From the IMG/VR virus record IMGVR_UViG_3300031414_000029: a DNA stretch of 53,718 nt. The stretch is one strand, 5' to 3'. Source of the stretch: a virus. This document shows, in pieces, positions 30,044 to 53,718 of the stretch. The position numbers and the translations under genes are program-made. The stretch's first letter is position 1; every line of letters starts with the position of its first letter. The notes below the pieces were generated by a model, which saw nothing but the letters and a program-made list of their open reading frames with translations, was not told the origin of the DNA and searched no databases.

Positions 30044-30165
30044 TGGTTAGAGATGCCGCTTGGGTTGCCGAAGTTAACAGACTTTTGGCCGAAATGGAAC
30101 AGTGTGTTGAACGTGTTAAGGCACTGCGTATCAAATGGGAATATAGGTTGGTGAATAATGGATAG
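30043..30165 (+). CDS. Possible 40-aa ORF (MVRDAAWVAEVNRLLAEMEQ...)
   Basis: taATG overlap with the endolysin stop. Below the ORF-track size cut-off; no TM segment or lipobox. Confidence 0.3.
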   Translation: MVRDAAWVAEVNRLLAEMEQCVERVKALRIKWEYRLVNNG

Positions 30166-30274
30166 AGAGAAACGCGATTCCATCAATCGTATGTACGAAT
30201 TGAGCCTAAGACTTAATGTTCTTGTTGCTCAGATGCGTGAACGTGCATTCAAAATGTATGGTTTTGTCAGTTAG
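30158..30274 (+). CDS. Possible 38-aa ORF (MDREKRDSINRMYELS...)
   Basis: Overlaps the previous mini-ORF; helical-looking. Confidence 0.25.
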   Translation: MDREKRDSINRMYELSLRLNVLVAQMRERAFKMYGFVS

Positions 30275-30494
30275 ATGCTGAGGGAAGGTGGTCGCGTAAG
30301 CGAACATCCTTTCCGATGCTAATAAATAAAGAATAAGTTAACATATTTATAATCCCAATATTGCAACAATATTAGTTATGGATGCACTATTGGAGTGGTT
30401 AATGAATTGTCGGTCAGCTGTACCTACTCGGTCTGGTTTCATTGTCAGTTAATCGTTCCTCGTCAGTCGGCTATACGAAATTAAATCCAATTCG

Positions 30495-30535
30495 AGATTC
30501 GTATAAGATTCTAAATTTAGATTCCGGCGAGATTC
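30495..30535. repeat. Four phased AGATTC repeats (starts 30495, 30506, 30519, 30530)
   Basis: Read directly. Spacings are 11, 13 and 11 bp. An A/T-rich tract and a T11 run (30552-30562) follow. Confidence 0.8.
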
Positions 30536-30882
30536 AAATTTAATTATAATATTTTTTTTTTTATCCGGTACTTGGGCGATTCGATTAATGTGCCAATTTA
30601 TAAATTTATTTTTGGAGTCGAGGAACAGAGGCCCAACAACGTCCTGTCGGACTTAAAATACGGTCCCTAAACCCTTTTTCTCTCACGAGCCTATCGGCTC
30701 TCAAAGTTCCAAAGCAAAGTAGCTCCCACTTCGTGGGCACAGGTCAACACAATCTCCATCAGTAGCGAGCCTAGTAGGTATCTCAATGAGAAGGCTACGC
30801 TAGTTAAATCCGTTTCATTGGGAATCGGAGCTGGTTGTTAGCTTAGTTGATTGTGCATTCTGACTACTAATTGGAGCTTACC

Positions 30883-32775
30883 ATGACTAATTCAAACGTT
30901 GTTAAATCTGTTGTTCCTGCTGTTACTTCTGCTATCTACCGTGCTAAAGAACAACAGGCATACATGCAGCCACAGACTTGTGCTATTGCTGCCTTAGCCA
31001 TGTTCCACATGATGACGTCTTTCACACGTGATGACGTTGTACCGGCTATCTCACTTGTTGCTCTTGCTGATGCCTCAATCAAGAAGGCTAACTCAACTAA
31101 CAATGACCTGAAAGCGTTCCACTACAATGACCCATCCATCAACCTGATTGGATTGGCTAAGCATCTTGGCTTCCTGTCAATGGCTGAAGATAAGTCATTC
31201 ACTATGACAGAGCGTTGGATTGAGCTTGTATCAACTAAAGAAACTTGCACTCCATTCACTGAGCAGGTTACTGAACTCAATCGTCGTAAGCCTTTCATCA
31301 AGGGTGGCAAACGTAAGCCTTCCAAACTGATGACAGAAGCAATCGACTTCCTGCAATCAACTGAGTATCACGTTGACTCTGCAATGGTTGACATTGTTGG
31401 TGACGTACTTGGCATGTCACATGAAGTTCCAGCTGTGATTCAACAGGAGCTGCATGTTTGGAACAACGCTCGTAACATGGCTAAAGAAGATGTGCTGTTC
31501 TCAGATTACTTCGCTGATAACCGTGGTCGTCTGTATCATGTAGCATGTGCTGGTCCAAATCCACAGTCATCTGACTTTGCTCGTTCACTGTATTCTCACA
31601 ATGTTGAGAACATCGTAGAACGTGGTTCAGAAGCATACAACATGTTCATGGCAGAGCTTGATGATGTAGCTGGTGGCAAATGGGTTGAGTCTAAGATGTT
31701 GACTCGTGTTGCTCAGAATCCAGTTGGTGCATTGAAACACATGCTGTCATCTGGTGATGCTCCTAAGAAGCCATTCACTTACATTCGTCTGGCATTGGAT
31801 TGGTTCAAGTTTGAAACAACTGGTGTCTGTGATTCACGCATTGGCTTTGGCTTAGATGCTAAATGTTCAGGCACTCAGTATCTGGCATTCATTGCAGGCA
31901 ACATGGAAATGGCTCGTGCAACTGGTTTAGTCAATTCAGACTCCAAAGCATCTGACCCATACCAGCTTTCATTGGTACAGTTGCTGAAACTGTTAGAGAA
32001 GTCATCAATGAATCCATCTGATGAAATTAAGGCTAAGTATTTCAATCCGAAAGACGGTCGTAACTTCATCAAGACTCCATACATGGCAGTTCAGTATGGT
32101 GGTGGTAAAGCTGCATTAACTGGCGACAAAAACTTTGCAACTACAGTTATCAGCATCTTTGGTGCAGACAAACTGGAAGCATTTGCAGAGCTGGCTGTTG
32201 AAGCTGTTAAGGCTGCACTTGGTGAGAAGATTAACCTGTTCATTGCTAAAGCGATGGAAGCAGTTAAAGCCAAATGTGAGAAAGAATCTAAGCTGTACAT
32301 TGATTACCGTCACACAGATGGTCAGGTTGTTCATAAGCCTTGCTATCCATCTCGTGCAATCTGTGATGCATTCAGCATTCGTGTTGATTCACAGACTCGT
32401 GTAATCTTTGGGAACATCGTTGAAGAAACTGAGTGGAAGATTCGTGAAACTCAGCCAACTGTTGAAGAATTCGCTCGTACCTTTGTTGTTAACTACATTC
32501 AGGGTATTGACGCGCTGGTGGCTCGTACTGTTGCTAAGTATGCTAAGAAAGCTGGTCTTCGTGGATTCACTTCTATTCACGATTGCTTCCGTTGCTGCTT
32601 AGCAGATGCTCCAAAAATGATGGCTGTGATTCGTGAAGCATACATTGAAATCTTTGTACGCAACAATCAGTTCGAATCTCTGTCCAAGCAGATTGGTGGC
32701 ATTGATATGTTCCATACCAATATCGTTACAGAAGAGCTGTTGAATTCAGAGCACGCTTATTACTTCTGTCAGTAA
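30883..32775 (+). CDS. Single-subunit DNA-directed RNA polymerase (T7-like), compact 630 aa
   Basis: GLDAKCSGTQYLA (T7 motif A region DGSCSGIQH), RNFIKTPYMAVQYGGG (motif B), TSIHDCFRC (motif C HDSF). GGAG lies 8 nt upstream of ATG 30883. Confidence 0.9.
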   Translation: MTNSNVVKSVVPAVTSAIYRAKEQQAYMQPQTCAIAALAMFHMMTSFTRDDVVPAISLVALADASIKKANSTNNDLKAFHYNDPSINLIGLAKHLGFLSMAEDKSFTMTERWIELVSTKETCTPFTEQVTELNRRKPFIKGGKRKPSKLMTEAIDFLQSTEYHVDSAMVDIVGDVLGMSHEVPAVIQQELHVWNNARNMAKEDVLFSDYFADNRGRLYHVACAGPNPQSSDFARSLYSHNVENIVERGSEAYNMFMAELDDVAGGKWVESKMLTRVAQNPVGALKHMLSSGDAPKKPFTYIRLALDWFKFETTGVCDSRIGFGLDAKCSGTQYLAFIAGNMEMARATGLVNSDSKASDPYQLSLVQLLKLLEKSSMNPSDEIKAKYFNPKDGRNFIKTPYMAVQYGGGKAALTGDKNFATTVISIFGADKLEAFAELAVEAVKAALGEKINLFIAKAMEAVKAKCEKESKLYIDYRHTDGQVVHKPCYPSRAICDAFSIRVDSQTRVIFGNIVEETEWKIRETQPTVEEFARTFVVNYIQGIDALVARTVAKYAKKAGLRGFTSIHDCFRCCLADAPKMMAVIREAYIEIFVRNNQFESLSKQIGGIDMFHTNIVTEELLNSEHAYYFCQ

Positions 32776-32790
32776 TCCAGTTCCAACTAA

Positions 32791-32818
32791 GGGCTTCTTC
32801 GGAGGCCCTTTTCTTTTT
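32791..32818 (+). terminator. Rho-independent terminator after the RNAP gene
   Basis: GGGCTTC-TTCG-GAGGCCC followed by TTTTCTTTTT. Confidence 0.85.
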
Positions 32819-32856
32819 AAACAAAAACAAAATCCTATTCTGATACCAAAGTGTTG

Positions 32857-32887
32857 TTGCAATATTGCGAGAATATTTTGGCATTAG
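32857..32887 (+). promoter_or_regulatory. 31-nt promoter-like motif TTGCAATATTGCGAGAATATTTTGGCATTAG (sister copy at 44277-44307)
   Basis: The two copies share TTGCAATAT..G.GAG.AAT.T.TT.GGCATTAG with identical spacing. Confidence 0.45.
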
Positions 32888-33253
32888 TTGGAAGTGGAGA
32901 AACAACAATCCGCATGACATATTCGAAACTGGTGTACAACAGTATTGAGCATGTCAACTTAGTTACAGTGAATGTTACAGGTTTAGTCAACTGTAGAACT
33001 CCCTGAGACGGCTACTCAAAGTTCCAGCTTCCATGATTGAGTAGGAGAGTTGCAATCCATTTGAAACAGAGAAAGCATGTCCAGTTAGTAACAGTCGAGT
33101 CCGTCCTATTATCAAGGCCCTAACACAAGCCGGGACAATGTCGATTGGAACTTAGTGGAATATTGTTCGAAACTGTAGAGAAATCGAAAGCGTAGCGAAG
33201 TCCGAGAAAGCATATGATTCTTCGACCGTTTGCCGCGCTAAAATTAGTAGCAA

Positions 33254-33664
33254 ATATTGTGGCATTATTGCATGTAAATATTGTCCCAATGCTGTGATTA
33301 CTTCAGCATGTTAGAATGTGACCAAATTGCTAGGGAGCTAATCACCCGTAGATGCAATGAAACTGGTCAATCCGGCATGTGTTTCGTTTACAGTATTGTG
33401 ACAGTTTAAGCATGTAATATTGCCACAGCTTTTTGCATGTCCCTCTGTAGCCCGCGTGGTTACTGGCTTTGTATCAATATTGCCACAGTTGTCGCATGTA
33501 TAGTTTGTGACAATATGTGGAGTAAACCTTTATTTTCTTTCTTTCTTTTTTGGTTGATGGTCACTCAGTTGCACCAACTTTCCACACTTTGAATGTGCCG
33601 AATACGCTCAAAGGGTAGGGAGTAAATGTAGCTATGACCGCATGTAAATAATGTGACAATTTAG
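33254..33664 (+). promoter_or_regulatory. Array of at least 7 promoter-like motifs (A)TATTG(T/C)(G/C)(A/C)CA..T..-GCATGT(A) in an ORF-free kb
   Basis: Copies at 33254-33276, 33278-33290 (partial), 33315-33328, 33393-33416, 33417-33440, 33477-33500, 33501-33520 and 33646-33664. Confidence 0.5.
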
Positions 33665-33866
33665 TGAGATTCGGCCTCACAGAATTGGCCCAGATTAGTT
33701 GCATGTGAATGAAAAGACAGAGTTTATCTCAGAATTTATTCTCGAATTAGCATGTAGAATTCGTGGAGTAAGTTGCGAGATAGGCTCCAAACTATCATTA
33801 GGATGTACATCTGGCACTATGCTAGTCACATGGTGCCTTTCTTAATTAAGTTATTGGAGATATAAA

Positions 33867-34034
33867 ATGCGTAAGAAATTTGACGAAATCAAAGATGGAG
33901 AGAAATTCATCTTCGCTGGTGTGCGTTATATTAAAGTGATGGAAGAATCTGTCTATTATAACGCTGTTGAAGAACGTCATTCAGGCCGTGCTTCGGCTTT
34001 CGCTGGTGGTGAAGTATGTATCGTTTGTTCTTAA
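33867..34034 (+). CDS. Hypothetical 55-aa early protein
   Basis: GGAGATATAAAATG ribosome-binding context. First ORF after the promoter array; not in the ORF track (under 60 aa). Confidence 0.5.
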   Translation: MRKKFDEIKDGEKFIFAGVRYIKVMEESVYYNAVEERHSGRASAFAGGEVCIVCS

Positions 34035-40829: not shown

Positions 40830-41360
40830 ATGTCTCCAAGTGAAATAAAAAGCCAGATTGAGCGGGCAACAAACATCCGTAACCTCTGTGTCCGATTTAA
40901 TAATTTCGAGGCATGGATTGATGCGGATGAATATGCAGATACCATCAGTATGGCTGATTTTCTGGAATTCCATTGCGATTTGACAGAAGAACAGGCCAAA
41001 AATCTCGTTGATGGTGACTTCATATTTGTTCACGCAGAAGGTTTGGCTGCAAAATTCATTAAAAATGATTGCTTCGATAAATTGGGCTATGAAAACGCCT
41101 CAATCTTTGCTTTAAATAGCTCAGATGAAGCGGCGATAGCCGGATTAAGTATTGGGATTGACCCAAACAAACTGTCAGATGCATATGTCGGGCAATATGA
41201 TAATTTCGAAGCATTTGTTGAAGAACGCTGGGACGAACAGAACCCAGAACTTCCTGAATATATCAGAAGGTACATCAGCTATGAAGCAATCGCGACAGAT
41301 TGGAAAGCGTGCGGAGACTTCTCAGAAGTCGATGGCTATGTCTTTGCCAATACAGCCTGA
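40830..41360 (+). CDS. ArdA-like antirestriction protein (DNA mimic)
   Basis: Acidic protein. The C-terminus ELPEYIRRYISYEAIATDWKACGDFSEVDGYVF parallels the ArdA pattern P..L..YIDY.A...DL...G.F....G..F. Confidence 0.55.
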   Translation: MSPSEIKSQIERATNIRNLCVRFNNFEAWIDADEYADTISMADFLEFHCDLTEEQAKNLVDGDFIFVHAEGLAAKFIKNDCFDKLGYENASIFALNSSDEAAIAGLSIGIDPNKLSDAYVGQYDNFEAFVEERWDEQNPELPEYIRRYISYEAIATDWKACGDFSEVDGYVFANTA

Positions 41361-41631
41361 AAAATGGGTTGGTGGTGAGATTATTTATCACCAAGACCGG
41401 CAGCACTATTATCAAACCATCAACAAAGTCACTATTAAGTGTCGCGACAACAATGGTGATGTTAGCTGGTGCGATGGTTGGAATTATGTTCGCGTGTCTG
41501 ACCTTTACGGCAATCAAACTTGCTTTGAAATTGATTGTGACCCGGATAAATTCCAAATGTTCTGCCGACCAAACGAATTCTTTGACTCGAATTGGATTCA
41601 AATTGGATTCGGGAATCGGCCGCTGCTTTAA
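41332..41631 (+). CDS. Hypothetical Cys-rich protein (start moved to ATG 41332)
   Basis: The 41152 start lies inside the ArdA-like gene. Confidence 0.45.
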   Translation: MAMSLPIQPEKWVGGEIIYHQDRQHYYQTINKVTIKCRDNNGDVSWCDGWNYVRVSDLYGNQTCFEIDCDPDKFQMFCRPNEFFDSNWIQIGFGNRPLL

Positions 41632-41817
41632 TTTTGCAACAGTGTGGCGCTTCGCGCAATTGGCATTAGCTGGTTGTGGCGAGGTGCCGACTTACTTGGA
41701 ACTTTTGAGGTTTGTCTGGAACGATTACGAATCCCAATTCAACTAAGCTCGTTCCAAGCTGTTCCTTAGCTGAACCAAGCATGTTGCAGTGTTCCAATTA
41801 ACGTCAAATGCATTATA

Positions 41818-41834
41818 CAGTTTGTGACAAAACC
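41818..41834 (+). promoter_or_regulatory. Promoter-like motif copy CAGTTTGTGACAAAACC
   Basis: Shares the TTGTGACA core with the 33.3-33.7 kb array. Confidence 0.35.
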
Positions 41835-42069
41835 TTGTCCAACAGCGATTTACGGTAGATTTGGTATGATTAACCACTTTTTCCGATTAACCAGTAAAAC
41901 AGGTAATACCGTTGTGAAACTATCGGTAAAACAGATTAGTCACAAAGTCTGTTTCACGATGGCGTCATAACCATCAAACACTACTCAATTAATTCATCTG
42001 ACAAGACGTGAGATAAAATTAAAAGAAGTCGTGACTACATAGGTGAACGAAACTTATTATTAATTTAAT

Positions 42070-42440
42070 GAGCTACATATGGGGTGTATTCGTTTACCGG
42101 TTTGTGCCAGGAATAAGCGAGCTGCTAGGGCTGATAATTTCGGGCGACCGGCGCTTATTTCCGACATTCTCGCAAGCCAGCGGCACGGTGCCGCGTTGTA
42201 ACATTAGTTGGATGTGGTTGTATCGGGTAGGGCATAGGGCCAGCCGCGAGCGATTAATGAGCCATACGGGTATGCCCGGTTTGAGGCTACACGCCGATGT
42301 GCAGGCTTTTTGTCCTACCCAATGCAATCATGCAACATACCTTAACAAACGCCTGTGTGTGCGGAGCATCCAGCATACAGCGGGTTTCGGAGCGGCCTTG
42401 CCACCAGCGGAGGCCAGCAGTATTGTCACATCATTCATTT
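42070..42440 (+). ncRNA. G+C-rich structured island (candidate ncRNA or long structured leader of the 42456 operon)
   Basis: Long-range helices: GGAATAAGCG 42110-42119 with CGCTTATTTCC 42152-42162; GGGCATA 42230-42236 with TATGCCC 42271-42277; GGGTAGG 42225-42231 with CCTACCC 42314-42320; GNRA hairpin CGG-GCGA-CCG 42141-42150. The only ORF has rare codons, no RBS and junk-like composition. Confidence 0.45.
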
Positions 42441-42455
42441 TGAAAAGAGAAATCT

Positions 42456-42761
42456 ATGTCAAAGAAATCAGTCAAACAGCGCGCTTTGTGTTGTAAGTTC
42501 CTTATGGATGATGGTGATATTTATCATTACGTCCGTATCGGTGGTCGTTGGTATTACAACGGTCGCAAGAGTCTTGAACTTAATAAAGTTCAGGCAACCG
42601 AATCAGGTTTCTGGTTGGATAATTATGTTTACATGCTGACCAGAAACAGTGCGTATACATTCCGTGAAATGGTTAATGCTGCTTCTATTCACAACGGTAG
42701 CAAGAAGCCTAAACTTATTTCTTATATCCGTGAATGGCTTCCAACGGGAGATACAGCATGA
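42456..42761 (+). CDS. Hypothetical protein
   Basis: AGAGAAATCTATG initiation context (the same 13-mer precedes 47889). Confidence 0.55.
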   Translation: MSKKSVKQRALCCKFLMDDGDIYHYVRIGGRWYYNGRKSLELNKVQATESGFWLDNYVYMLTRNSAYTFREMVNAASIHNGSKKPKLISYIREWLPTGDTA

Positions 42762-42973
42762 AATACGGTAAAGTTGTTTTACCAAACGGTGACATACTCT
42801 GCGAAGGGTACGATGCTGAACAGCTCGATGAATTAATCGACGGCTGGAAAACAAACGCCGAGTCAATTGGTTCTGACCTGTACGATATGACAGGCGATTT
42901 AGCAATTGGTCCGCAAATCATGACAGACCTGTTAAATCGGGTTAAAGAACTGGAGGCCAAACTTGGCTCGTAA
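42758..42973 (+). CDS. Hypothetical acidic protein (start moved to ATG 42758)
   Basis: ATGA overlap with the upstream stop. Confidence 0.5.
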   Translation: MKYGKVVLPNGDILCEGYDAEQLDELIDGWKTNAESIGSDLYDMTGDLAIGPQIMTDLLNRVKELEAKLGS

Positions 42974-44774: not shown

Positions 44775-44807
44775 TCTGATCTGACCGGCGTCTGATAAGC
44801 GCGGCGT

Positions 44808-44835
44808 AAACCCGATGTTGTATTCGGGTTTATTT
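44808..44835 (+). terminator. Rho-independent terminator
   Basis: AAACCCGA-N8-TCGGGTTT followed by ATTT. Confidence 0.75.
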
Positions 44836-45509
44836 AATATCCGGAATCCCATTCTGCCAACCACAGGCCAAATTGCCCGAGAGTTGAGAGTGGGCTTCTG
44901 GATGATTTGAATAGCACAATATTCAGGACGAGCATGCACACAGAAATCTGGAATTTTATTATGGCCTGAGAAACCATCGTATGTCCAAGTTTCGTGAGGA
45001 AGTGCATCTGTACTTGTGTGAAAGACGGAACAATTACTCAAATTGCCCGGACTCTTAGAGTCGTCATCCAGAAGTTTTCGTTCGTTAGAGTCGATTATTT
45101 TTACTTATAAAATAAGTGCAAACGATAATGAAATGCGAGCAGCCGCTTAATTAAATTTAAGTGCTCTCCGTGGTCTTTCGATTCCATGTAACCAAATTCG
45201 ACGCAGTGGCCCGCTGTGATTAATAATGGGCACAACTTTACATTTTGAGCTGCATACTTGATTAGACGCGGGAGGATGGCCGATGCCCGTTATGTCATGG
45301 CCCAGAAGTGTGCAGCGTCAAAGTGCAAAGCAAGCACCGGAACGAAATTTTGGCGGGACTAGCCCCCCGCTGTTAAAGTAGTTCCACCTATTCGTATCAA
45401 CTTGCTTAAGGTGAGGTAGTCACTGCAAGTTCGTACAATCGACCTCGGCATGTCGTTAAACGAGCCTCAATTTCATAAGAGAGCTTTAGTGGTTCATTGT
45501 TAATTCAAT

Positions 45510-52880: not shown

Positions 52881-53718
52881 ATGGCCCTTTTTCAAGCACC
52901 AACGAAAGATTCCGGTAAAGCACCTTCCAAAGCACCTCTGTTAGAATCAGGCGGCTATCCTGCTCGTCTGGTTCGTCTGATTGACCTCGGCAAACAGCCG
53001 GGTTCTGGTCAGTACCCAGACCCTTCATATAAACTGCTGGCGACCTTTGAGTTGCTGGACGAATACATGAAGGAAACCAATGAAGCTGGTGAAATCGTCA
53101 TGGTTCAAGACCCTGATGGTGAGCCAGGCGAAATGATTGGCAAAGACCTGCTGGATAAACCACGCTGGTTCGATTACGAATTCACCTATAATCCTGATGG
53201 ATTCATGGGTGACCGTTCGCACATCTACAAATTCATTTCTGCAATTGATGGCTTTGAAGTTAAGCCAGACCCGGCAAACAACATCGCTGGTCATCCGGCT
53301 AAACAGCTGAATGAAATGCTTGGCGAACCGCTGAACGTAACTCTGGTGTCTTACACCAAGAAAAGCGGTAAGAACGCTGGCCAGTTGGCTAACAAAATCT
53401 CTGGTTTCACTTCAATGAAAACCAAAGAGAAGCGCGAAGCTCGTGCTCTGGTTAACCCAACTATCTTCTTCGACCTCGGCAATCCTGATATCGAAGTGTT
53501 CAGCAAGCTGCCGGGCGGCGACCACGAGTTCGCAATCAAGAACCGTATTCTGAACAACTTGGAATTCAACGGCTCTAAACTGCAACTCGCGCTGGGCCAG
53601 ACTCCAACTCAGGCTCCGGTTGAAAACAAAGCATCTGAAGAACAGGTTGATGAAGCAATGAAAGCAGAACTGGAAGCTCAGGCTAAAGCCAAAGCAGAAC
53701 GTGAAGCCGCTGCTGCTG
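52881..53718 (+). CDS. ssDNA-binding-like protein (gp2.5-position), 291 aa in total; continues through the junction to base 165
   Basis: GGAGAAACAAAATG context. Position after the DNA polymerase. Ala/Glu/Lys-rich linker and an acidic tail ending DLPF. Confidence 0.55.
   Translation, partial: MALFQAPTKDSGKAPSKAPLLESGGYPARLVRLIDLGKQPGSGQYPDPSYKLLATFELLDEYMKETNEAGEIVMVQDPDGEPGEMIGKDLLDKPRWFDYEFTYNPDGFMGDRSHIYKFISAIDGFEVKPDPANNIAGHPAKQLNEMLGEPLNVTLVSYTKKSGKNAGQLANKISGFTSMKTKEKREARALVNPTIFFDLGNPDIEVFSKLPGGDHEFAIKNRILNNLEFNGSKLQLALGQTPTQAPVENKASEEQVDEAMKAELEAQAKAKAEREAAAA

Follow-up and report, generated by a model that had tools for sequence, protein, structure and literature searches.

The locus and its surroundings

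The present analysis concerns a G+C-rich island at positions 42070-42440 of the virus record IMGVR_UViG_3300031414_000029, a stretch of 53,718 nucleotides (nt) which is called the window throughout. Judged from the comparison with related phages, this island is the core of a predicted conserved multi-arm structure of the plus strand, which keeps a fixed position in the Cleopatravirinae sampled. Its three arms, termed A, B and C, are held in the predicted fold by base pairs that covary across genera. BLAST placed the window phage in the genus Loessnervirus (Chaseviridae, Cleopatravirinae) of Erwinia and Pantoea phages, with Erwinia phage Y2, Pantoea phage SSEM1, Fougasse, Berlingot and Fifi44 as the nearest named relatives. 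Chaseviruses are myoviruses with a T7-like polymerase and terminal repeats of approximately 3 kb, and their promoters were described as “not yet identified” (ICTV profile, PMC12842549). Every long open reading frame (ORF) of the window lies on the plus strand, among them a T7-like single-subunit RNA polymerase (30871-32775, plus strand), a large terminase subunit, and a primase-helicase and a Pol I-type DNA polymerase, which together make up a T7-like replisome. The window is a circular assembly in which bases 1-127 are identical to bases 53592-53718, leaving a unique length of 53,591 base pairs (bp). These identical ends are the k-mer overlap of the circular assembly and no terminal repeat; the assembly has collapsed the terminal repeat of approximately 3 kb which members of the family should carry.

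The island lies in a gap without genes at 41632-42455, bounded by a stop codon ending at 41631 and the next ATG at 42456 as originally claimed. This gap follows the genes for an ArdA-like anti-restriction protein (40830-41360, plus strand) and a gp29-like protein, both early genes, and precedes the next gene cluster. The G+C content of positions 42100-42399 was 55% compared to 44.6% for the genome, a value reached by only 0.9% of all 300-nt windows, which bears out the compositional part of the original prediction. The first gene after the element (42446..42761, plus strand) appears in the ORF list with 101 amino acids (aa) and a codon log-odds value of +0.23. Its ribosome binding site (RBS) and ATG are contained in AGAGAAATCTATG at 42446-42458, and homologous first genes follow the element in Papaline, in E. 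coli phages and in Aeromonas phages. The same start region had been noticed at gene 47889, and within the window it indeed occurs only at 42446 and 47879, identical over 42446-42458 and 47879-47891. Both sites belong to the first gene after a non-coding block.

The open reading frame across the island

The longest ORF of the gap (42068-42496, plus strand, 142 aa) runs across the whole island, while the minus strand of the island holds an ORF of 77 aa. ORFs were annotated here in some records of relatives, e.g. gp30 of Y2 and gp35 of SSEM1, however, inconsistently in frame and extent. The original prediction had doubted the 142-codon ORF on several grounds. No Shine-Dalgarno sequence was found before 42068 (preceding sequence ACTTATTATTAATTTAATG), and Cys, Arg, Trp and His are enriched in the product, both as stated there. 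The claimed preference for codons otherwise avoided by the phage was confirmed for ATA, AGG, CGG and CTA, which are 6-12 times commoner here than in a set of 20 long ORFs from the same genome, but not for GGA, which showed no enrichment. The mean log-odds per codon was -0.27 compared to +0.09 to +0.23 for neighbouring genes. Among 5.8 billion proteins the 142-aa sequence matched only itself, and a Pfam search gave no match, as a non-coding reading requires. Insertions and deletions in the island among relatives are not multiples of three. As there is no homologue, no Pfam match, an atypical codon usage and no RBS, the ORF 42068-42496 is no gene but spurious, and the island is non-coding. A tblastn search with the endonucleases that some relatives carry at this locus (see below) yielded nothing significant in the island. 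With protein search, Pfam search and tblastn all negative, the island is thus neither a gene nor a recognisable decayed endonuclease gene. The hypothetical proteins placed over the region in public records (Y2 gp30, SSEM1 gp34 and gp35, Aioli 00013) should be revisited.

Arm A contains a near-invariant junction strand

Arm A (42099..42178, plus strand) was defined by a covariance model (R1), by covariation and by the minimum-energy fold. Its outer helix GGUUUGUG/CGCAAGCC (42099-42106 / 42171-42178) was taken from the minimum-energy fold; SA91KD, contig L031 and phiA050 form an equivalent helix from different sequences. Inside it lies P1 (GGAAUAAGCG/CGCUUAUUUCC, 42110-42119 / 42152-42162), a 12-bp helix with one bulge, which encloses a 21-nt strand (AGCUGCUAGGGCUGAUAAUUU, 42120-42140), the variable hairpin P2 (CGG-GCGA-CCG, 42141-42150) and a single purine. 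P1 and P2 had been proposed from the window sequence as the helix GGAATAAGCG/CGCTTATTTCC enclosing a GCGA-capped CGG/CCG hairpin; both are real and covary in relatives. The junction strand, with the consensus AGCUGNUAGGGCUGA(A)UAAUU, is near-invariant in 15 distinct sequences from at least six genera, in which arm A has 18 invariant columns. Three of the sources are uncultured contigs; the others are phages infecting Erwinia, Pantoea, Escherichia, Yersinia, Aeromonas and Proteus. It holds a mini-hairpin of 4 bp, AGCU/GGCU, and because this shows a compensatory change in phiEcoM-GJ1 (GGCU..GGCC), arm A is probably a three-way junction. A variant junction strand (AGCUUUUGGGGCU..) with the same helices was found in Faunus, PM1, phiEcoM-GJ1, Calisson and Papaline.

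Model R1 detected 28 loci with one plus-strand match each, the window scoring 61 bits at 42106-42166. In the model alignment 15 of 16 pairs were changed on both sides, 78.7% of the cells were paired compared to 36-42% with slid partners, and the covariation score was reached by none of 500 shuffles. We are aware that the alignments used for arms A and C (A2 and A4) were fitted to covariance models, which favours structure; the slid-partner controls were still only 36-58% paired. For the choice of the strand arm A alone is uninformative, with 10 G-U versus 10 A-C pairs. It was located upstream of a gene in all cases, and it occurs alone in Myduc and L015, in Myduc approximately 25 nt before the gene start.

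A reading of the junction strand as phage promoter or host-derived sequence was rejected: it is present once in the window, and elsewhere it was found in chasevirus-sized contigs of 52-57 kb. Scans of the whole collection returned such contigs plus a few chance-like matches without flanking helices. A hammerhead-like reading of CUGAUAA in arm A was likewise discarded, as the GAAA strand is lacking and Rfam gave no match.

Arms B and C and the folded strand

Arm B (42214..42331, plus strand) is a long hairpin with a variable tip, supported by the fold z-score and by a duplex test. At its base GUGGUUGUAUC-GGGUAGGGC (42214-42233) pairs with GUCCUACCC-AAUGCAAUCAU (42312-42331), forming in the window a helix of approximately 20 bp which consists of 8 bp, a 1x1 mismatch and then 9-10 bp. 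The proposed helix GGGTAGG/CCTACCC (42225 / 42314) is real and belongs to the base of this long covarying helix. A second suggested helix, GGGCATA/TATGCCC, falls in the variable tip and is not part of the minimum-energy fold. The fold z-score of arm B was -5.15 for the plus strand (reached by 0 of 200 shuffles) and -1.85 for the minus strand. In 12 phages the cognate strands averaged -22.8 kcal/mol compared to -15.9 kcal/mol for non-cognate strands; pairing persists although the sequences differ. Among close relatives the tip exists in at least four unrelated versions.

Arm C (42346..42433, plus strand), defined by model R2 and by covariation, comprises two hairpins. CAAACGCC is followed by hairpin C1 (42351-42385, loop GGAGCAUCCA, with a conserved apical GGAG(C/A)AUCC), the linker GGGUUUCGGAGCGG with the consensus GGUUUCGGA(A/G)CGG, hairpin C2 (42394-42415) and a tail containing GUCACA (42425-42430). 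Most relatives have AUCAGUCACAU as tail, the window has UUGUCACAUC. The motif GTATTGTCACA at 42420, listed earlier as promoter-like but not supported as a plus-strand promoter, is the form in the window of this conserved tail (AUCAGUCACA). Three CGGAG(C/G) copies had been listed as repeats and are present, but only the first, located in the C1 loop, is conserved, and they form no functional repeat; the second and third copies read CGGAAC and CGGGAG in relatives. With model R2, all matches of which were on the plus strand, 18 loci were detected, among them those of Faunus, PM1 and phiA050; the window scored 80 bits (42342-42433). A total of 89.1% of the cells were paired versus 41-58% with slid partners, 13 of 19 pairs were changed on both sides, and again 0 of 500 shuffles reached the covariation score. 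Since the 63 G-U pairs by far outnumber the 10 A-C pairs, the plus strand is the folded strand. In every genus possessing arm C, 20-35 nt separate its 3' end from the RBS.

For the whole island the fold z-score was -2.1 on the plus and +0.4 on the minus strand. The original prediction of a structured non-coding RNA (ncRNA) or riboregulatory leader rather than a gene is supported by the covariation, with compensatory changes in arms A and C of relatives, by the strand bias and by the lack of a conserved protein. The suggested comparison with riboswitch, intron and leader families in Rfam gave no match for the island: scanning 41500-42600 against 4227 families at E <= 10 yielded only a chance match to mir-1010 on the minus strand. 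The element represents a new family within a known general kind of RNA, and its three-way junction is conserved to an unusual degree.

Two long-range pairings were tried and rejected. A helix of GUUUGUG(A/C)C with GUCACA.. showed matching variants, but the cognate energy of -10.5 kcal/mol hardly differed from the non-cognate value of -9.9 kcal/mol; for the same strand the local partner CGCAAGCC is more stable than GUCACA... A pairing of GUUUGU with ACAAAC is broken in the Fifi44 group without compensation.

Hairpin hp2 and a promoter-like 17-mer

A further hairpin, hp2 (GCGGC-ACGGU-GCCGC, 42180..42194, plus strand), corresponds to the CGGCA-CGG-TGCCG motif reported earlier and is conserved, with an invariant stem and a variable loop (ACGGU, UCCGU, UACGU, CUUGU or CUAGU in Loessnervirus relatives). 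Because the stem shows no covariation, the evidence for hp2 is weaker.

At 42200..42216 (plus strand) the island contains AACATTAGTTGGATGTG, a 17-mer which had escaped the original prediction and which is a perfect copy of the family's putative promoter for the phage single-subunit RNA polymerase. Further copies in the window, all on the plus strand, are found at 1295, 32880, 33691 and 37691, and weaker ones at 41665 and 43954. None of the five copies lies in a conserved or otherwise supported coding frame; those at 1295, 32880, 33691 and 37691 are intergenic, and the one at 32880 directly follows the polymerase gene. The island copy matches the “putative phage promoter” AAACATTAGTTGGATGTGGA of phiEcoM-GJ1 at 17 of 17 positions, and it also matches “putative phage promoter” features in the SA91KD record. 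Versions of the 17-mer stand at matching positions in the Cleopatravirinae loci examined. For PP101 a similar kind of promoter prediction, and prediction only, was published (PMC6989608). The copies constitute a putative promoter set for the T7-like polymerase of the phage. At the island position itself the motif is kept in Loessnervirus and Faunus and missing in L031, phiA050, SA91KD and the E. coli phages, and is thus a lineage-specific addition and no part of the RNA core.

The records of Berlingot (L010 and L011) and Mauresque (L012 and L013) open inside the island at a duplicated 21-mer, TTTAGCTTTAGTTGGATGTGA. Five records of French phages open there, and a genome terminus or pac site was considered, but the junction carries the duplicated 21-mer. 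As this contains the multi-copy promoter motif, the break is probably an assembly artefact and no genome end; the openings are probably untrimmed assembly overlaps at the promoter motif. In the 56.6-kb record of Y2 the region lies 12 kb from the start, with the gap at 11.9-12.7 kb.

Upstream block and further non-coding features

The structure is not confined to 42070-42440 as first assumed. Structured conserved sequence runs upstream to approximately 41873, with a second conserved block at 41873-41996 separated from the island by an A+T-rich spacer. It contains a three-tier hairpin (41911..41971, plus strand; loop with UUAGUCACAAAG), defined by conservation and by the fold z-score, which is 83-85% identical to relatives while its flanks are less conserved. 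The fold z-score of the block was -3.4 on the plus and -0.5 on the minus strand. A neighbouring hairpin, GAUGG..CCAUC, reads GAUAGC..GCUAUC in Y2 and GAUGGAA..UCCAUC in phiEcoM-GJ1. The upstream hairpin may belong to the same RNA as the arms of the island. In SSEM1 the upstream hairpin carries in its loop an insert of approximately 110-120 nt, annotated as gp34 (L002, 3881-4000). This insert shares 75% similarity with a segment present in ST32, SA91KD and contig L031; in ST32 and SA91KD promoter motifs flank that segment. The insert may be a small mobile or RNA-coding module.

Further upstream, a leftward near-consensus promoter of the sigma-70 type (41812-41841, minus strand; TGGACA-18-TATAAT, 11 of 12 matches) opposes all genes of the phage. 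The supposed plus-strand promoter TTGTGACA at 41818 sits in the spacer of this minus-strand promoter and is not supported as a promoter of the plus strand. In PM1, Faunus and phiEcoM-GJ1 the corresponding site can be read as TTGACA-18-TATAAT; in phages of the Y2 group this spacing is not intact. TGGAAC/GTTCCA motifs are repeated in the window at 41690-41800. In relatives, tandem copies of the phage-promoter motif are separated by an A+T-rich stretch which contains TGGAATAA repeats. Together, repeats, tandem promoter motifs and leftward promoter resemble, at the level of sequence motifs, a replication origin region.

Elsewhere in the early region, stretches without a plus-strand ORF of at least 60 aa were found at 32776-34015, 44775-45698, 46464-47191 and 30044-30870. 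A tRNA-like sequence with a terminal CCA (47349-47417, plus strand), located in the second large non-coding block, reached 37.8 bits against the Rfam tRNA model (gathering score 29), without a call by ARAGORN; it was the only match in an Rfam scan of the whole window at gathering thresholds. Relatives carry tRNA genes in that second block, namely tRNA-Arg in phiEcoM-GJ1 (“may contain an intron”), tRNA-Cys in PM1 and tRNA-Arg in Myduc.

Conservation of the element and its endonuclease allele

In all Loessnervirus relatives the non-coding block is 69-80% identical, up to a point shortly ahead of the downstream gene, where the identity ends. Behind the ArdA-like and gp29-like genes, phiEcoM-GJ1, SA91KD, ST32, Mangalitsa, 4HA13, PYps16N, Faunus, PM1, Myduc and phiA050 have a gap of 0.5-1.1 kb. 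The position of the gap is kept in Loessnervirus, Carltongylesvirus, Sabourvirus, Faunusvirus, Suwonvirus and Myducvirus. The island is retained in relatives infecting Erwinia, Pantoea, Escherichia, Yersinia and Aeromonas. Where detected, arms A and C occur in a single copy per genome or locus and always on the plus strand. A search within 4 kb of the marker gene in the Nefertitivirinae pAh6-C, Spp001 and VPs20 revealed neither of these two arms.

Calisson, Papaline and phiEcoM-GJ1, and thus both Erwinia and E. coli phages, carry a different cassette of one type in place of the segment from approximately 42098 to the 3' strand of arm B. This cassette consists of the variant arm A, an ORF of 124-134 aa, and a different 5' strand which pairs with the conserved ..AAUCAU. 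Flanked by variant arm A on one side and arm B on the other, the ORF has a match to phrog_2340 (endonuclease) and a weak one to an HNH family; it was not recognised by Pfam. The PHROG match ends near residue 79, and the remainder overlaps sequence homologous to hp2 and the promoter motif. Faunus and PM1 contain the variant arm A without an endonuclease ORF, and no protein-level similarity was found between the island and the endonuclease ORFs. In Calisson (L004, 2025-2429) and phiEcoM-GJ1 (L022, 2101-2502) the ORF is annotated as “putative exonuclease SbcC”. It encodes a small Cys/His-box endonuclease, and by its sequence the SbcC label looks wrong.

Possible function of the element

Our tentative first choice, and the most probable of the readings considered, is a cis-acting leader or an intercistronic or processing module of transcripts made by the phage polymerase. 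The region would be transcribed rightward together with the genes, starting from phage-polymerase promoter copies located where the gap begins and, in Loessnervirus, additionally from the internal copy at 42200-42216. It would act in cis on the same transcript as leader or intercistronic module. Arm B would begin at or just after the likely start of the internal promoter, and its helix of approximately 20 bp could stabilise the 5' end of the mRNA, could be a processing site of the RNase III type like the intercistronic sites of T7, or could do both. In T7, RNase III sites are found just downstream of its promoters, and transcripts often start with a stabilising hairpin. Arm C would impose a defined fold on the RNA immediately preceding the RBS. 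The sequence of arm A varies far less than that around it; arm A would therefore serve to recognise a conserved partner, in the form of a host factor or a small ligand, and this partner would set the expression level of the downstream cluster. Near-invariance over at least six genera, as seen for the junction strand, usually marks a specific molecular partner. A leader is supported by the closeness of arm C to the RBS, by the position of arm A near the gene start in Myduc, and by the lack of a terminator-like site in 41300-42800, the scan covering intrinsic host-type terminators only. The candidate phage-polymerase promoter inside the element is a concrete place for mapping transcription starts. 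Chaseviruses are candidates for biocontrol and therapy against Erwinia, Pectobacterium, E. coli and Aeromonas, and their gene regulation is essentially unstudied; a literature search revealed no chasevirus transcriptome or ncRNA report and no paper with the motifs.

Several observations weigh against such a leader. Transcription, start sites and processing are all inferred. The gene after the element differs, with another small gene in first position in Fifi44, Mauresque and Calisson, which argues against a regulation tied to one gene product. The invariant 21-nt junction and the GNRA hairpins exceed the needs of a stabilising hairpin or an RNase III site. A non-exhaustive inspection revealed no conserved alternative pairing that might serve as expression platform, and the internal promoter copy is lineage-specific. 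Furthermore, the part comprising arms A and B swaps as a cassette with the endonuclease version, which a plain leader does not explain. Finally, the same covariation would be expected from plus-strand DNA folded in this way, e.g. from a strand displaced in an R-loop.

The constancy of the element beside a varying downstream gene would suit a discrete, stable, trans-acting ncRNA of approximately 330 nt (approximately 560 nt with the upstream hairpin), processed from a polycistronic transcript and directed at a conserved host or phage target, e.g. in host takeover or anti-defence. Its size, multi-arm fold, GNRA loops and invariant junction are more like those of stand-alone RNAs than of simple leaders, and the location among early genes beside the ArdA-like gene fits an anti-defence role. 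An end-to-end helix between GUUUGUG(A/C)C and GUCACA.., with its matching variants in some lineages, would close such an RNA, but it failed the energy control described above. The absence of a host-type terminator and the abutment of arm C on the RBS also speak against a separate RNA, as does the occurrence of arm A alone in Myduc and L015. We consider this explanation rather unlikely, yet the strongest competitor of a cis-acting module.

Still less likely, to our judgement, is a part in a replication origin, in which transcripts of the phage polymerase from tandem promoters prime DNA synthesis as at the primary origin of T7, and G-rich structured RNA or displaced plus-strand DNA forms a persistent hybrid as priming or loading site. 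The 5' half of the gap offers 2-4 tandem promoter-motif copies in relatives and A+T-rich stretches with TGGAAC/TGGAATAA repeats, and the leftward sigma-70-type promoter, readable also in PM1, Faunus and phiEcoM-GJ1, and the T7-like replisome fit the same picture. A GC skew of +0.17 to +0.19 was calculated over 42000-42300, and the plus-strand covariation agrees with folded displaced DNA as well as with RNA. However, the cumulative GC and AT skews gave no signal at the island, RNA tolerates G-U pairs, which are abundant here, better than DNA tolerates G-T pairs, and the origin-like features lie upstream while the island itself is unlike known origin elements. A similarly low probability is assigned to a new class of complex-fold RNA formed by arms A, B and C, either a junction sensor for a small molecule or host machine which gates the switch from early to later expression, or a mobile intron-like RNA with its own homing endonuclease located outside genes.

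The replacement cassette with its variant arm A, phrog_2340 endonuclease and own arm B base suggests a further possibility, namely that the island is the ORF-less form of a selfish intron-like cassette whose full form carries the small HNH-type endonuclease. The RNA would then serve the cassette, by endonuclease expression or self-processing, and not the phage. Intron ORFs often run into core structure, as the 3' end of the cassette ORF does with the hp2- and promoter-homologous sequence. The presence of the same type in Erwinia and E. coli phages and the mosaic arm B tips agree with a mobile cassette. On the other hand, no group I or group II intron or ribozyme of Rfam was matched even at E <= 10, the flanks are non-coding, leaving no exons to join, and the island shares no protein-level similarity with the endonucleases. 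Moreover, Faunus and PM1 have the variant arm A without ORF, and arms A and C are conserved beyond the cassette, which makes this origin of the island improbable. A real or recently decayed protein gene, be it the 142-aa ORF or the 77-aa ORF of the minus strand, is suggested by the open frame and by some annotations, but with compensatory substitutions in the helices, in addition to the missing homologues and RBS, the negative codon score and the shifting frames and indels described above, it has almost no probability left.

Comparison with known systems

Riboswitches share with the element the aptamer-like junction of arm A, its covarying helices P1 and P2 and the location upstream of a gene. 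They differ by a terminator-like site or an alternative pairing, neither of which was seen here, the inspection for the latter being not exhaustive. More generally, the large bacterial and phage RNA motifs of the riboswitch or ribozyme kind collected in Rfam resemble it in covarying helices arranged around conserved unpaired strands, in GNRA loops and in being G+C-rich within an A+T-richer genome. Unlike these, the element matches 0 of 4227 Rfam families even at E <= 10 and is limited to one phage subfamily.

Phage group I introns with HNH or GIY-YIG ORFs are comparable as structured RNAs of 300-400 nt with an optional small endonuclease ORF between helices, the 3' end of which runs into structured sequence in some relatives. 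However, the element interrupts no gene, as the upstream gene stops at 41631 and the downstream gene starts from a separate RBS and ATG at 42446-42458, and single arms of the element also occur on their own. For the group I core (P3-P9) no match to Intron_gpI was obtained and none was recognised by eye, pseudoknots not being searched systematically. Without an interrupted gene and without a detected core, a group I intron is an unlikely reading. The primary origin of T7 consists of tandem phage promoters followed by an A+T-rich region, to which the gap of relatives with its tandem promoter motifs, A+T-rich repeats and a T7-like replisome is similar. Here, in contrast, the origin-like features are found in the 5' half of the gap outside the island, and the T7 origin has no comparable structured G+C-rich element.

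The RNase III sites and stabilising 5' hairpins of the T7 group come closest to the cis-acting module favoured above. As in T7, a phage with a T7-like polymerase places structured RNA between gene clusters beside promoter-like motifs, and arm B, a putative cleavage site, provides about two turns of imperfect double-stranded RNA, with equivalent helices in 12 phages. Compared to the R sites of T7, which occur approximately ten times per genome, the element is several times larger, is present once per genome, and contains in arm A a near-invariant three-way junction.

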